Shown here: one piece after another, positions 36,816-41,968 of the stretch
Layout of the letters: every line of letters starts with the position of its first letter
Position numbering within the stretch: the first letter of the stretch is position 1
IMG/VR virus record: IMGVR_UViG_2563366992_000001
Coordinates: 1 to 41,968 of that record
Strand: one strand, 5' to 3'
From: a virus
Taxonomy: Duplodnaviria > Heunggongvirae > Uroviricota > Caudoviricetes
DNA length: 41,968 nucleotides
The notes under the pieces: model-generated
Database searches by the model: none
What the model was told of the DNA's origin: nothing
The model's input: the letters and a program-made list of their open reading frames with translations, nothing else
Translations under genes and position numbers: made by a program

Positions 36816-37370
36816 ATGCTTATTGGCTATGTACGTGTGTCAACAAATGACCAGAACACAGATCTACAACGTAATGCGCTGAACTGTGCAGGATGCGAGC
36901 TGATTTTTGAAGACAAGATAAGCGGTACAAAGTCCGAAAGGCCTGGACTGAAAAAACTGCTCAGGACATTATCGGCAGGTGACACTCTGGTTGTCTGGAA
37001 GCTGGATCGGCTGGGGCGTAGTATGCGGCATCTGGTCATTCTGGTTGAGGAGTTGCGCGAACGAGGCATCAACTTTCGTAGTCTGACGGATTCAATTGAT
37101 ACTAGTACCCCAATGGGGCGCTTTTTCTTTCATGTGATGGGTGCCCTGGCTGAAATGGAACGAGAACTGATTGTTGAACGAACAAAAGCTGGACTGGAAG
37201 CTGCTCGCGCACAGGGACGAATTGGTGGACGTCGTCCCAAACTTACACCAGAACAATGGGCGCAGGCCGGTCGATTAATTGCATCAGGCGTTCCTCGCCA
37301 GAAGGTGGCGATCATCTATGATGTTGGTATATCGACACTGTATAAGAAGTTTCCGGTCGGAGATAAATGA
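36816..37370 (+). CDS. pin: serine DNA invertase (Pin/Gin/Hin family)
   Basis: N-terminal GYVRVSTNDQ catalytic-Ser motif and C-terminal HTH; adjacent to the invertible segment. Confidence 0.9.
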   Translation: MLIGYVRVSTNDQNTDLQRNALNCAGCELIFEDKISGTKSERPGLKKLLRTLSAGDTLVVWKLDRLGRSMRHLVILVEELRERGINFRSLTDSIDTSTPMGRFFFHVMGALAEMERELIVERTKAGLEAARAQGRIGGRRPKLTPEQWAQAGRLIASGVPRQKVAIIYDVGISTLYKKFPVGDK

Positions 37371-37405
37371 AACCGTAGCACGTCGTATGCAAGATCGTGC
37401 TGCGG
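37353..37405. repeat. direct repeat copy A (pin 3' end plus hairpin)
   Basis: CCGGTCGGAGATAAATGAAACCGTAGCACGTCGTATGCAAGATCGTGCTGCGG; contains an 8-bp stem hairpin 37375..37403. Confidence 0.55.
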
Positions 37406-37427
37406 TTTATGCTTATCACTTAAAGAC

Positions 37428-38201
37428 TCAAAAATTAGGTGAGTAACGGACCGGGGACATAGCTCCTTTTTTTCTTAATTCATCTGGTATTTTTTTTCCA
37501 AGATAAAGATTTGCTATTTCAGGTGGGGCTTCTCGACCTTCAAAACCATAGCGAGAACTTTGTGTTGCCTCAAAGTCAGGATCCTCGTCCCAGTATTTCA
37601 TCGTAGGGAAATTTTCACGTGTTGATTTGAGCCATTTATCAGCAATGAAAACCCCTCGAACGATTCCCCTTACAGTCGCAAGAATGACTTCTGCTTGGCT
37701 GGCGCGAGAGACATTAATGCGCCAGCTAAATCGAACCGCATCATAAAGCTCTGAATCCTTTGCACTTCTGTTAACGGAAATCATTAATGCTTTATGATGA
37801 AATGTTATGGTTTCGGGGTGATATGTTGCTATCAACTCTTTGACATGCGCGGCGCCGAATTCATTGCTGCCAGCACCATTCATGATATTCGTTAACCCAG
37901 GGTAGGCATCAATAAGTGCTGCTTCAACTTCGTACGCCGTCTTTTCATCAGTCATTCCGTGTCGATGGATGACGTGGATAACTTCAAGTCCCGCTAATCT
38001 TATTTCTCTGATTTGCTTTAGCTTGTTGCTCAGTAACTCGTCATCATCAGCCGCTGCCACTTCACCGCGCATATGGGCAAATACGCGGTTACCTTTGCCT
38101 TTCCCTACATAGAAGGTGCTTCCGTCCCTAGGATCAATCAATCGGTATACATACCAGCCAAGGTGTTCAATTACTCCAGAAGGAAACTCAGTAATATCCA
38201 T
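37428..38201 (-). CDS. GIY-YIG domain protein with uncharacterised C-terminal domain
   Basis: N-terminal [24 protein letters not shown] parallels the UvrC/GIY-YIG motif; weak RBS, start uncertain (38201 ATG or 38252 TTG). Confidence 0.55.
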
Positions 38202-38377
38202 TTTGCAATATCTGTGAATTATTTGTGAGACGTATATTAATGAACATTGCAAGGGCTCACAACTAGTAGTGTTGAGAAAGCCATCGGGAAAATGAGGCTA
38301 ACCCTTTGAATTTACATAGCGCAAAAAGATACCTTTCCTCATAATGTGAGCTAATTTTATGTTTCGTTTGATGATCG

Positions 38378-38426
38378 GGTCGGTCTCGAAACCCGTAGCC
38401 ACGTCATATGCAAGAACGTGCTACGA
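38378..38426. repeat. direct repeat copy B (degenerate copy of the pin 3' end plus hairpin)
   Basis: CGGGTCGGTCTCGAAACCCGTAGCCACGTCATATGCAAGAACGTGCTACGA aligns with copy A over about 50 bp with a few substitutions and indels. Confidence 0.55.
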
Positions 38427-38706
38427 CTGGCTGGTGAACTTCCGATAGTGCGAGTATTGAATGATTTCCAACTGTTATCGATTTTGCGTATTTTTTGCAT
38501 GAGAGGATTTTTACCTCCTCCCACCGATCCTCCATGGCTTTACGCCAGTGTCTCTGGTCTGCTATGTGCCAGTTGCGGACATTACAAATAGCAGTACGTA
38601 TTGATCAGTTCAAAAAAACCACAATATTTATTGAAACAAATGAAGGTAATGATATTTTATTGTGATGAAGTATTGGTGCTGGGATTTGACTTAAGGGAGT
38701 GAAGTA

Positions 38707-40177: not shown

Positions 40178-40777
40178 AACACGTTACCGTGGAACAAAGA
40201 CCGTATCATCGGCCAAAAAAGACCGCTTCAGATATCTCATATCTGGGGGATCCGAATCAGGCTTGAACTGGAAGGTAAAACGCGCGATCTGGCCCTGTTC
40301 AACATGGCTTTGGACAGTAAGCTACGGGGCTGTGATCTGGTTAAACTAAAAGTATCAGATGTTGCATATGGTAGCTCTGTTTCAAGCAGAGCAACGGTGT
40401 TGCAGCAGAAAACCGGTAGCCCTGTGCAATTTGAGATAACTAAAGGGACTAGAGAAGCCGTTACTGCATTGATAAAGCTTAGTAATTTGCATAGTAAAGA
40501 CTACTTGTTCCGATCTCGGGTCGGTACTAACCGGCACATATCAACCCGGCAATACAACCGAATTTTTCATGGATGGATAGAAAAGCTTGGTCTCGAAGAT
40601 TCGCTTTACAGCACACATTCCATGAGAAGAACAAAACCTTACCTGATCTACAAGAAAACCAAGAATCTCCGAGTGATCCAACTTCTGTTGGGCCATAAGA
40701 AACTGGAAAGTACAGTCCGTTATCTGGGCATTGAAGTCGATGATGCGTTAGAGATCTCTGAATCGATTGAAGTCTAA
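40175..40777 (+). CDS. small tyrosine recombinase, FimB/FimE-like size (200 aa), catalytic domain only
   Basis: Catalytic residues in order: LRGCDLVKLKVSDV (Arg I), HSMRRT (H-x-x-R), LLGH, TVRYLG (Tyr); no arm-binding N-domain; ATG at 40175 with AGGAG RBS. Confidence 0.65.
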   Translation: MNTLPWNKDRIIGQKRPLQISHIWGIRIRLELEGKTRDLALFNMALDSKLRGCDLVKLKVSDVAYGSSVSSRATVLQQKTGSPVQFEITKGTREAVTALIKLSNLHSKDYLFRSRVGTNRHISTRQYNRIFHGWIEKLGLEDSLYSTHSMRRTKPYLIYKKTKNLRVIQLLLGHKKLESTVRYLGIEVDDALEISESIEV

Positions 40778-40783
40778 GGTTGT

Positions 40784-40805
40784 CAGGGCTGCGATAGCAG
40801 CCCTG
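40784..40805 (+). other. perfect 9-bp stem / GATA tetraloop hairpin after the recombinase (no U-tract)
   Basis: CAGGGCTGC GATA GCAGCCCTG. Confidence 0.4.
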
Positions 40806-40866
40806 TGCCAAGAACGGACTTTCTTGGTTCTGTTATTAATTATGGAGATAAGAAATTTATTTATGG

Positions 40867-40925
40867 CACTATAATGAGACTTAGGAAATAAGGGGTTAAG
40901 CTATATGACACTATAAGAACTAAGG
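40867..40925 (+). promoter_or_regulatory. paired direct repeats containing -10-like hexamers upstream of the last gene
   Basis: CACTATAATGAGACTTAGG (40867..40885) and CACTATAAGAACTAAGG (40909..40925). Confidence 0.35.
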
Positions 40926-40972
40926 ATGGGTTTCTAACGGATGAGTATATAACCAATTTAATAGGTGTTACT

Positions 40973-41968
40973 ATGAACGGAATTTGGTATAAAAACACAC
41001 ATACTCGCATTCCTCGCTTTGAATCTACAACTCATATTAATCAGAAAGTAGGTTATGCTTATGAAACATCAAGCCATTTCGTGCACTTTTATGGGCGTGA
41101 TGTTGGATTCAATGTTGTTTCAGTCGGATTAACTGTTGTTGAGCATAAAAATGGAAATCTAGATGAGTGGGTGCAAAGGGTTTTTGGCGCTCAAGATATC
41201 CAGCCATTGAACAAAGAGGTTGGGCATGTCACTCAAGGGGTGTGGAGACCTTCTCTTTACTATATGAAAGATATCGAAGTCGCGCTAGGTATTGATGAGT
41301 TTGAAAAACGCGCATCAGAACAAGCTCTACGAGTTCTCATTGAAAAAATTGATGATATTTTATTATATGTTGAACCTAGCTCTAGTGGGTTAAATTCATA
41401 TAGCCATAAATGCAGAGAGTTGTTGATTCTCGCATGTACTGAGGTTGAAAACCAATGGGTGTCAATAATAAATAAAACAAATGGATTCAAGTCAAATGCA
41501 AGGTACAATACCAATGATTACATTAAACTTTTGGATAAATGTTTTTTAAAAGACTTCAGAATACAGTACTGTAATTATCATGGCCTTAGGTTCTTTAAAC
41601 CATTTGATAGTTGGTCTATAGCCAATCCAACCACATCATTAAGATGGTATGACGCATATAATAAAACAAAACATGACAGATCTGGCGCATTTTATTTTTC
41701 AACTCTGGAAAATGTGATGGAAGCAGTAGCTGCATGTATTGTGTTGTATTGCGTAAAATATGGACCATTTAGTTTAACAGAGTCTAAAACAACGTTATCA
41801 ACAATTGTAAATCAACACTTTTCCATTTCATTTGAAAATAGTGACCCTGCAAATTATTACATTCCTGAAATTGAACTTCCACAAGGTTCTAGAGGTGATT
41901 TGTTTCTTTATGATTGTTATCGTGAAGGGCATAATAAAAATTGGATTAAAGACTCTTTGATTATATAG
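40973..41968 (+). CDS. hypothetical protein (331 aa), AT-rich cargo gene
   Basis: ORF with AGGTG RBS; no motif I can place; stop codon is the last triplet of the window. Confidence 0.5.
   Translation: MNGIWYKNTHTRIPRFESTTHINQKVGYAYETSSHFVHFYGRDVGFNVVSVGLTVVEHKNGNLDEWVQRVFGAQDIQPLNKEVGHVTQGVWRPSLYYMKDIEVALGIDEFEKRASEQALRVLIEKIDDILLYVEPSSSGLNSYSHKCRELLILACTEVENQWVSIINKTNGFKSNARYNTNDYIKLLDKCFLKDFRIQYCNYHGLRFFKPFDSWSIANPTTSLRWYDAYNKTKHDRSGAFYFSTLENVMEAVAACIVLYCVKYGPFSLTESKTTLSTIVNQHFSISFENSDPANYYIPEIELPQGSRGDLFLYDCYREGHNKNWIKDSLII

Follow-up and report, generated by a model that had tools for sequence, protein, structure and literature searches.

What holds together the AT-rich genes that follow the tail-fibre invertase gene pin in the 41,968-nucleotide tailed-phage record IMGVR_UViG_2563366992_000001 (IMG/VR, Caudoviricetes; its whole length is called the window below)? 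Four open reading frames (ORFs) lie there, encoding a GIY-YIG protein, a standalone ComEC-like metallo-β-lactamase (MBL)-fold hydrolase, a small tyrosine recombinase and a 331-aa protein. A preliminary description of this DNA had listed them as an undescribed combination and as a candidate for a novel, possibly phase-variable, anti-phage or exclusion locus. All four ORFs are present as described, and the fold calls, including the absence of a match for the 331-aa protein, hold by Pfam, NCBIfam, PADLOC (v2.0.0) and Foldseek. The four genes are nevertheless not one system or operon; they are one known nuclease plus separate, swappable single-gene cassettes. The best explanation of the locus, which we consider fairly probable, is a cargo slot holding the nuclease gene PD-T4-3/CMoRE and a cassette array, bounded by two types of short site (A and B) and moved by its own recombinase.

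When the region was compared by BLAST with the loci fetched up to that point (numbered from L001, the E. coli E06 locus, for which the window coordinate equals L001 + 25352), we observed a clean split into modules:

Up to 38579: prophage backbone, common to L002, L005 and L006.
38557-40126: MBL gene and its flanks, 97.5% identical in nucleotides to a Pantoea stewartii island (L011 6855-8420).
40112-40822: recombinase block, with 90-92% identical copies in many E. coli genomes.
The next 2.8 kb: a stretch found in this arrangement only, which holds the 331-aa gene and the DUF4145 gene.
From L001 18243: prophage backbone again, common to L002, L005 and L006.

Every module boundary falls within a 24-nt imperfect palindrome of one of two types. 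Type A reads GTCCGCTC-TGTGCCAG-GAGCGGAC and type B, on the recombinase strand, GTCCGCTC-CTCGCTCA-GAGCGGAC. Both have 8-bp inverted arms flanking an 8-bp centre, and B is an inverted A-like site with a centre that differs at two positions. The order of the array is A-[MBL]-B-[recombinase]-A-[331 aa]-B-[DUF4145]-B, and the window ends short of its two final sites and of the DUF4145 gene:

38557-38580, plus strand: site A1 (GTCTGCTA TGTGCCAG TTGCGGAC), left boundary shared by the variable slot and the MBL cassette.
38707-40026, plus strand: cargo of cassette 1, the standalone ComEC-like MBL-fold hydrolase, 439 aa.
40112-40135, plus strand: site B1 (GTCCGCTG ATCGCTCT TGAAGGAC), junction of MBL cassette and recombinase block.
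40175-40777 (ORF from 40127), plus strand: 200-aa tyrosine recombinase, core of a conserved block of ~710 bp (about 40112-40822).
40796-40819, plus strand: site A2 (AGCAGCCC TGTGCCAA GAACGGAC), junction of recombinase block and 331-aa cassette.
40973-41968, plus strand: cargo of cassette 2, the 331-aa protein, with a predicted N-terminal beta domain and HEPN-like helical domain.
41996-42019 in window-equivalent numbering (L001 16644-16667), outside the window: site B2, which closes the 331-aa cassette.
Just past the window end: DUF4145 gene with a 449-aa product (Pfam DUF4145, E 8e-6).
43599-43622 in window-equivalent numbering, outside the window: the B site that closes the slot.

The left half of A1 is conserved with the prophage backbone, and its unusual TTGCGG right half is common to the Pantoea copy. 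The left half of B1, GTCCGCTGATCGCTC, is also common to Pantoea; the outer halves of A1 and B1 match the local context instead, and it is inside B1 that the Pantoea homology stops and the homology of the recombinase block starts. The half-site facing a cassette travels with the cassette and the one facing the backbone or the recombinase stays behind, the pattern that strand exchange in the site centre would leave. In the Pantoea stewartii island the MBL module is found without the recombinase and without the 331-aa gene, cut exactly at A and B. There (L011 6344-8764) it directly follows a CbeA-family antitoxin gene, in the usual place of the CbtA toxin, and the island is CP4-57-like and carries McrBC.

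Related prophages fill the same slot differently: with an Mrr-type restriction endonuclease, the recombinase and a 290-aa protein in APEC 102026, with a RelA/SpoT-like 'GTP pyrophosphokinase' in T16R and with three hypothetical proteins in ETEC1738, these alternative occupants lying between the same A and B half-sites. No empty slot was found with a chimeric query of left plus right backbone in 5426 complete E. coli genomes, the set used for all genome counts below. The whole 4.6-kb block occurs at 100% identity in three of these genomes. All three are rearranged: in E06 pin is truncated by IS26, which links the block to an early region of lambda type that includes rexAB, and in CS18F and FY10 the block is interrupted by an IS5-family element (ISKpn26). 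The window's own intact arrangement was absent from the set.

The recombinase is the conserved core of a widespread cassette platform and not a partner of these particular genes. Its block has sharply bounded ends and was found in 961 of the genomes (~18%), in an island of Nissle 1917, in Qin-like prophages, in a tRNA-Ser island, in the ypjA region and on an IncY phage-plasmid, with different neighbours each time. Members of the family, 200-203 aa long, are 77-96% identical in the Enterobacterales and Alteromonadales, and identity is ~62% for those of Pseudomonas, Burkholderiales and Xanthomonadales; the proteins are present on 442 plasmids, alphaproteobacterial ones included, and nearly absent from sequenced phage records. 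The protein consists of the catalytic domain only (PF00589, E 3.6e-18, residues 51-200 of the 216-aa ORF), and all 26 sequences compared, from Gamma- and Betaproteobacteria, retain the catalytic R, K, HxxR, H and Y. A PDB sequence search gave no significant match. Two further palindromic elements flank the gene:

40142-40174, plus strand: 12-9-12 palindrome ACTCAAATCTCT-CACATTGCA-GGAGATTTGAGT, directly 5' of the recombinase ATG (40175-40177).
40784-40805, plus strand: stem-loop CAGGGCTGC-GATA-GCAGCCCTG after the recombinase stop, its 3' arm doubling as the degenerate inner arm of A2.

The first is part of a predicted hairpin (40139-40177, -19.3 kcal/mol) in which the CAT at 40139-40141 pairs with the ATG, leaving both the Shine-Dalgarno sequence and the start codon paired. 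A hairpin that pairs the Shine-Dalgarno sequence by a different stem was predicted in most of 31 taxa. When the hairpin was aligned with MAFFT, RNAalifold predicted no pairs, and because the stems are not in register in the alignment, the evidence for it comes from individual folds. Such a hairpin at the 5' end is a device by which insertion sequences (IS) block translation of read-through transcripts. We also considered the 12-9-12 palindrome as a recombination site and rejected it: each locus has a single copy, which in every taxon overlaps the Shine-Dalgarno sequence and the start codon, and a role in translational control is the better reading. The stem-loop 3' of the gene has an equivalent in other taxa. 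Promoter and terminator scans returned counts at chance level. Another candidate, an inverted repeat at 38832-38855 and 40845-40868 (79% complementary), was discarded as an inversion site, being a chance AT-rich match that is not conserved in other recombinase loci.

We then counted sites, allowing up to 6 mismatches, in 18 Enterobacterales loci (329 kb), each oriented by its recombinase gene. We observed 92 sites (47 A and 45 B) as against none in a shuffled control, and every one of the 92 was oriented like the recombinase gene. Successive sites alternated between A and B in 54 of 74 transitions (A to B, 31; B to A, 23; A to A, 10; B to B, 10), and no hybrid A/B centre was seen in this census. 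The distances from A to B, which hold the cassettes, were 0.5-10 kb; the gaps from B to A were 10-18 nt in 15 of 23 cases and ~660 nt, with the recombinase inside, in five. Locus L004 provides a clean example, reading A5844, B7018, A7060, B9001, recombinase, A9685, B11231.

The positions at which homology breaks off were analyzed pairwise in 22 loci. Among 319 distinct homology ends, 176 lay within 15 nt of a site centre, compared with 2.8 expected (maximum 8 in 1000 randomisations), although the ends are not independent because many derive from the recombinase block itself. An 81-nt query spanning the 66-nt B-linker-A junction matched 1484 of the 5426 genomes, and 610 over at least 80% of its length. 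These matches occur in 1-3 places per genome, always in unannotated DNA, and no target-site duplications were found around the junctions. The linkers are of varied sequence and do not stem from the recombinase block by deletion.

The first of the four genes lies outside the array and has a repeat structure of its own:

37428-38201, minus strand: GIY-YIG gene PD-T4-3/CMoRE (ORF 37428-38252; probable true start 38201, the RefSeq start being as in L001 12076-12849).
About 37369-37408: copy 1 of a direct repeat, beginning at the pin stop codon (pairwise alignment).
About 38388-38428: copy 2 of the direct repeat (pairwise alignment).
38388-38496, plus strand: repeat copy 2 with a conserved lambdoid fragment of ~110 nt, a piece of a RefSeq 'capsid protein' pseudogene.

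The GIY-YIG protein matches PF22945 (E 2.8e-14), the PADLOC model PD-T4-3 (PDLC04031, E 6.4e-140, residues 18-273 on profile positions 1-255 of 256) and chain A of PDB 9U75 from E. coli O157:H7, to which it is near-identical (E 3e-172, residues 17-274 versus 5-262). PD-T4-3, renamed CMoRE, is a type IV modification-dependent endonuclease that degrades the DNA of T-even phages containing 5-hydroxymethylcytosine or its glucosylated form (PMC12923530). The gene is this already characterised, single-gene defence, a full-length, near-identical member (PDB 9U75, 9U7U) in which no sequence-level difference was seen, and its product is putatively active in this strain. In the K-12 prophage e14, mcrA follows pinE at the matching place, as had been noted; mcrA encodes another type IV enzyme, so the equivalent place holds the same kind of function as CMoRE here. 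No A or B sites were found around mcrA in K-12 e14.

The preliminary description placed a duplicated pin 3' end at the start of the island. A direct repeat does exist (~40 nt, imperfect), but it encloses the GIY-YIG gene only and, since copy 1 starts at the stop codon, it duplicates DNA just 3' of pin and not pin coding sequence. CMoRE would sit as a small insert between these repeats, independent of the cassette array. The fragment at 38388-38496 has 88-90% matches to HK97 (~20.95 kb), HK106 and the ends of many Shiga toxin phage records; most of the 3570 E. coli genomes hit by our query were probably hit through it. These matches to phage ends made it a candidate attachment site attR, which was rejected since a fragment of the 3' end of thrW lies past the DUF4145 gene instead (L001, L002). 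An Rfam scan gave no match above threshold; a sub-threshold match to the Shigella small RNA CssrB (37348-37404, 32 bits versus a gathering score of 76, E 8e-4) overlaps the pin end and repeat copy 1.

The cassettes hold further defence candidates. For the MBL protein the Pfam match was below the cut-off (PF00753, E 0.009), and the best PDB match of its AlphaFold model was the ComEC β-lactamase-like domain 9IC4 (Foldseek E 1.4e-8, TM (target) 0.67); conserved motifs are SHFDxDH, GD, PHHGS and HP. It resembles ComEC/Rec2 in the type of its MBL domain and differs in lacking the full ComEC membrane architecture, with 26 bits against TIGR00361 (cut-off 190) over residues 60-104 only and no membrane domain in the model. 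Similarity to Lamassu LmuA-MBL, DRT RTasMBL, Avs1a, 6A-MBL and PDC-M48 is limited to ~30-60 aa of the metal-motif region (E 1e-11 to 1e-4), and NCBIfam models of known MBL defence proteins gave 21-27 bits versus cut-offs of 220-420. Homologues are solitary in defence islands, beside McrBC, GmrSD, MmeI-like and T5orf172 genes, and no partner genes of known MBL defence systems were found near this gene or near the homologues examined. Judging by its modelled fold, the protein would be a DNA or phosphodiester nuclease and a single-gene defence candidate.

No match to the 331-aa protein was found in Pfam, NCBIfam or PADLOC, nor any significant PDB match by sequence. Its most conserved stretch is W225-Y-D-A-Y-N-K-T-K-H234-D-R236, H145-K-x-R148 is invariant, and a canonical Rx4-6H motif was not identified by inspection. 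Among its homologues, one lies in a P2-type hotspot, flanked by gpA and the portal gene; homologues were also found next to Gabija-like genes and within an integrative and conjugative element (ICE). From the predicted structure, it would be a HEPN-like abortive-infection RNase, again a single-gene candidate. The DUF4145 protein aligned with the PADLOC model PD-T7-3 (E 3.8e-15, residues 6-282 of 449 on profile positions 5-298 of 432); by sequence it is a distant PD-T7-3 relative and not a clear member, and it would be a HEPN-type RNase acting by abortive infection. The MBL, 331-aa and DUF4145 genes did not co-occur elsewhere; they are independent candidates and not subunits of one system.

Cassettes beside the recombinase in other loci carried PD-T7-1 (E 7e-157), PD-T7-5 (E 8e-102), HEC-08 (E 1e-173), Septu PtuA/PtuB (E 1e-165 and 1e-83) and a LeoBC-like dynamin. 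PD-T7-1, PD-T7-5, HEC-08 and Septu are experimentally validated single- or two-gene defences, the validation of HEC-08 being described in bioRxiv 10.1101/2024.01.29.577857.

We propose that the 200-aa recombinase would bind the A and B sites and exchange strands in their centre. Because the centres differ, A would recombine only with A and B only with B, and an A...B segment could be replaced by another in one step through two crossovers. Alternatively, recombination of A with A or B with B within an array could release a circle consisting of one cassette and a B-linker-A junction, able to re-insert at any cognate site. Translation of the recombinase would probably be kept low by the hairpin that pairs its Shine-Dalgarno sequence and start codon, and each cargo gene would be a self-contained single-gene defence candidate. 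The broader proposal is an undescribed integron-like platform in which a 200-aa recombinase of Gamma-, Beta- and probably Alphaproteobacteria uses two non-cross-reacting 24-bp sites to exchange mostly single-gene anti-phage cassettes among prophages, phage-plasmids, plasmids, ICEs and islands; this we put forward as a real possibility that falls somewhat short of probable.

Several observations weigh against a recombinase-driven array. About a quarter of the transitions in the census are A to A or B to B, which could be missed degenerate sites or real departures from alternation, and in the locus itself the 331-aa and DUF4145 cassettes have between them no more than a poor remnant, if that, of the expected A site. 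The half-sites adjacent to the recombinase are degenerate (TGAAGGAC, AGCAGCCC), so that its own flanks may be poor substrates, and arms of 8 bp are short for a recombinase without a core-binding domain. A scan of the Pseudomonas-type relatives examined, made with a consensus derived from Pseudomonas and allowing 6 mismatches at most, gave close matches only for the inverted site pair flanking the gene, and a few weak ones elsewhere; the arrays may thus be mainly an Enterobacterales feature. Some cassette cargo is not defensive: A/B-bounded cassettes carry a TonB-dependent receptor with an ABC transporter (L003 11765-17508, Nissle 1917) or betT with a DUF2254 gene (L010 1257-4953), and the array with betT was also found on an IncY phage-plasmid that carries CTX-M-15 (L102). 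Finally, the link between recombinase and sites is drawn from association, polarity and breakpoint positions, that is, from sequence comparison.

Other explanations have to be set against the same data. That the GIY-YIG, MBL, recombinase and 331-aa genes form one new multi-gene defence or exclusion system, perhaps switched by the recombinase, is suggested by their adjacency, their AT-richness and their nuclease-type folds in a prophage cargo slot; MBL proteins also belong to some multi-gene systems, and the weak matches to LmuA, RTasMBL, Avs1a and 6A-MBL are N-terminal. But CMoRE works alone and lies on the opposite strand, the combination is confined to the three genomes mentioned above, homologues of the MBL and 331-aa proteins were never found together nor with the recombinase, the recombinase has other neighbours in every context, each gene has its own sites and no inverted configuration was seen. 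We give this reading the least credence of all, and the idea of an undescribed four-gene combination falls with it, one of the genes being known, homologues occurring alone and each gene forming its own site-bounded module. A recombinase acting as a DNA invertase, which flips its own segment or a neighbouring cassette and so phase-varies the flanking defence genes, would agree with a size and architecture like those of FimB/FimE, with cassettes lying between oppositely oriented sites and with cargo genes in either orientation within cassettes. Against it, the consensus centres of A and B differ at 2 of 8 positions and form no hybrids, all 92 sites keep the orientation of the recombinase, and each of the three copies with 100% identity aligns on a single strand. 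NCBIfam invertase models also score far below their cut-off (24.6 versus 222 bits). An invertase is hence very improbable, and the suggested phase variation finds no counterpart in these loci.

A more substantial rival makes the palindromes passive, as terminator or insulator hairpins or elements like the repetitive extragenic palindromes (REP), with swaps brought about by ordinary or phage-Red-type homologous recombination and the recombinase having another role or being a relic. Each site can indeed fold into a hairpin where a gene ends, the half-sites next to the recombinase are degenerate and catalysis is itself inferred; moreover, turnover of the P2 and P4 hotspots by homologous recombination between conserved flanks is well established. 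What makes this unlikely, in our view, is that the breakpoints lie inside 24-nt imperfect repeats even in slots without a recombinase gene (T16R, ETEC1738), a length that is short for RecA-dependent exchange. A single polarity in 92 of 92 sites is unexpected for palindromic terminators, the sites are rare, with 1-3 junctions per genome, unlike REP elements, two centre types alternate, and the catalytic residues of the recombinase are all kept at 60-96% identity in two proteobacterial classes. Alternatively, B-recombinase-A could be a small IS-like transposon with 24-bp terminal inverted repeats, the B-linker-A units its miniature inverted-repeat (MITE) derivatives and the 'cassettes' simply the DNA between insertions. 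B is an inverted near-copy of A, which leaves the recombinase gene flanked by inverted repeats; that pair is the only close match in the Pseudomonas-type relatives examined, the 66-nt B-linker-A unit is MITE-like and the 5' hairpin is typical of insertion sequences. However, conservation of the block starts and stops mid-site and not at the outer ends, the outer halves co-vary with the neighbouring cassette, target-site duplications are lacking and one orientation prevails throughout an array. The linkers, besides, do not derive from the block by deletion, and the degenerate arms are the inner ones. We consider this transposon reading improbable, and retain a cassette array moved by its recombinase as the explanation to be preferred.

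The position of the slot in the prophage was established from the following features:

1-1254: proA, at the window start.
About 1369-1446, plus strand: thrW, tRNA-Thr(CGU), found by ARAGORN.
About 1398-1446: attL copy of the attachment (att) repeat, equal to the 3' ~47 nt of thrW; the attR copy lies outside the window.
1459-2622, minus strand: integrase gene, preceding the rest of the prophage.
36780-37370, plus strand: pin, serine invertase of the tail-fibre segment (Resolvase + HTH_7, E 1e-51), left neighbour of the cargo.

The late region carries baseplate and tail-fibre genes, then the invertible tail-fibre segment and, at its end, pin, the counterpart of which is annotated pinE in related genomes. 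The 25-nt 3' end of thrW is present as a single copy in the window and repeats at L001 18540-18564 and L002 14378-14402. In the identical copy of E06 the order 3' of the 331-aa gene is the 449-aa DUF4145 protein, ~270 bp of conserved DNA, the thrW fragment (18540-18564), an integrase remnant and the vat island, placing attR ~1.9 kb beyond window position 41968; the related prophage of APEC 102026 (L002) is closed by the same thrW fragment. About 210 bp of right-hand backbone before this fragment (L001 18243-18453) belong to the phage, because they are also present in the relative L006, which is integrated in icd and not in thrW. With attL in thrW and attR past the DUF4145 gene, the cargo region therefore lies inside the prophage and adjoins attR: it is a slot for variable cargo, at the end close to attR, in a prophage that is integrated in thrW and has a tail end like that of e14. 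The cargo region reported at 37353-41968 is real, but the window cuts it short of the DUF4145 gene and attR. The suspicion of a defence locus holds insofar as this is accessory cargo within the att boundaries, relatives carry other defence-type genes there and CMoRE is proven anti-phage; a single novel system it is not.

The described contrast in composition was confirmed, with a G+C content of 0.51-0.59 in the tail module (17-35 kb) compared to 0.36-0.41 at 38-41.5 kb. A second AT-rich dip (0.375-0.44) at 13000-15000, around the ORFs 12998-13750 and 13953-14738, may be another moron or cargo slot. A 20-nt inverted repeat (34885-34904 and 36735-36754, 95% complementary, arms 1.83 kb apart) has one arm in a tail-fibre gene and the other just 5' of pin; the two arms presumably serve Pin as crossover sites for the invertible segment, which holds alternative fibre C-termini and assembly genes on the opposite strand. 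At 8652-8774, in or beside the gene for the prophage's replication initiator, a tandem run of six ~15-nt units (TCAAAATCTGACCCG-like) looks like origin iterons. After attR (L001 18719-24272; L002 14557-21420) we observed a P4-type integrase truncated to its Arm-binding domain, a MarR regulator and vat, which encodes an autotransporter toxin; with this integrase remnant and vat directly past attR, the prophage is therefore in tandem with a thrW-linked vat pathogenicity island.

Defence genes turn over rapidly at fixed hotspots, and for most of these only homologous recombination between conserved flanks has been proposed so far. The units swapped here have sequence-defined ends and a dedicated, highly conserved recombinase alongside. 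If this recombinase acts on the sites, it would constitute a second natural cassette-capture system besides integrons and a mechanistic cause of the quick turnover of defence genes at E. coli hotspots, with many new defence candidates. A position between an A and a B site would then be a cheap guilt-by-association rule for new defence genes, and a compact recombinase with heterospecific 24-bp sites might serve genome engineering. For the window itself, one gene is explained (CMoRE), and two more, with a third just outside, are defined single-gene candidates. What appears to be new is the site-specific cassette platform and two to three single-gene defence candidates; CMoRE was already known. 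No description of the recombinase-site system was found in full-text literature searches, which included the literal site sequences and in which coverage of subscription journals was thin, so that an earlier description is possible. Vassallo et al. mention that some of their systems have 'a nearby integrase gene', and no more.

A close natural parallel is the integron (IntI, attI/attC). In both, a tyrosine recombinase goes with a polar array whose cassettes mostly hold one gene, and the junctions are short and imperfectly palindromic, the B-linker-A unit being, at ~58-66 nt, of attC-like size. As in sedentary chromosomal integrons, the cargo is rich in anti-phage genes, and here expression of the recombinase appears tightly restrained. 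However, the 200-aa recombinase lacks the N-terminal domain and the IntI-specific insertion of IntI (~320 aa), and NCBIfam integron integrase models gave 15.5 and 14.6 bits versus cut-offs of 435 and 265. By inspection no GTTRRRY core is present in A or B, and two site types alternate where integrons have one attC type. The recombinase gene sits inside the array and not at its head beside attI and Pc; the cassettes are larger (0.5-10 kb), with genes in either orientation and probably their own promoters, and the arrays lie within prophages, plasmids and islands.

The pdif modules of Acinetobacter are likewise modules between short arm-spacer-arm sites of alternating orientation, with neighbours sharing a site. 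The same module is again found in different replicons, cut at the sites, and the mechanism was inferred largely by comparative genomics. Those sites are 11-6-11 targets of the chromosomal XerC/XerD, whereas ours are unrelated 8-8-8 sites with a dedicated recombinase in the array; the dif sequence is GGTGCGCATAA-TGTATA-TTATGTTAAAT, and by inspection A and B bear no resemblance to it. The cargo is mainly phage defence instead of antibiotic resistance, and the hosts are Enterobacterales and other Proteobacteria. FimB and FimE are, like our protein, tyrosine recombinases of ~200 aa with the catalytic domain only, and in the R64 shufflon Rci also acts on segments separated by short sites of opposite orientation, each with a conserved and a variable arm. 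In contrast to these, the segments here are whole unrelated genes and not alternative gene ends or a promoter, no inversion was seen, and FimB/FimE-type models scored low (PRK09871, 24.6 bits versus a cut-off of 222; PRK09870, 18.1 versus 221).

The P2/P4 and other prophage hotspots, like mcrA in e14, share with this locus a fixed slot beside conserved phage genes, here from pin/CMoRE to attR, in which anti-phage genes vary; they do so without a dedicated recombinase or defined crossover sites. Engineered cassette exchange with heterospecific lox or FRT sites uses a segment between two sites with shared arms and a different crossover region that are, as is putatively the case here, each specific for itself. 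That system is artificial and uses Cre or Flp, and the non-cross-reactivity of the natural A and B centres is putative, but its clean replacement of one cassette by another, without excision or inversion, would fit both the always-occupied slot and the absence of hybrid centres observed here.

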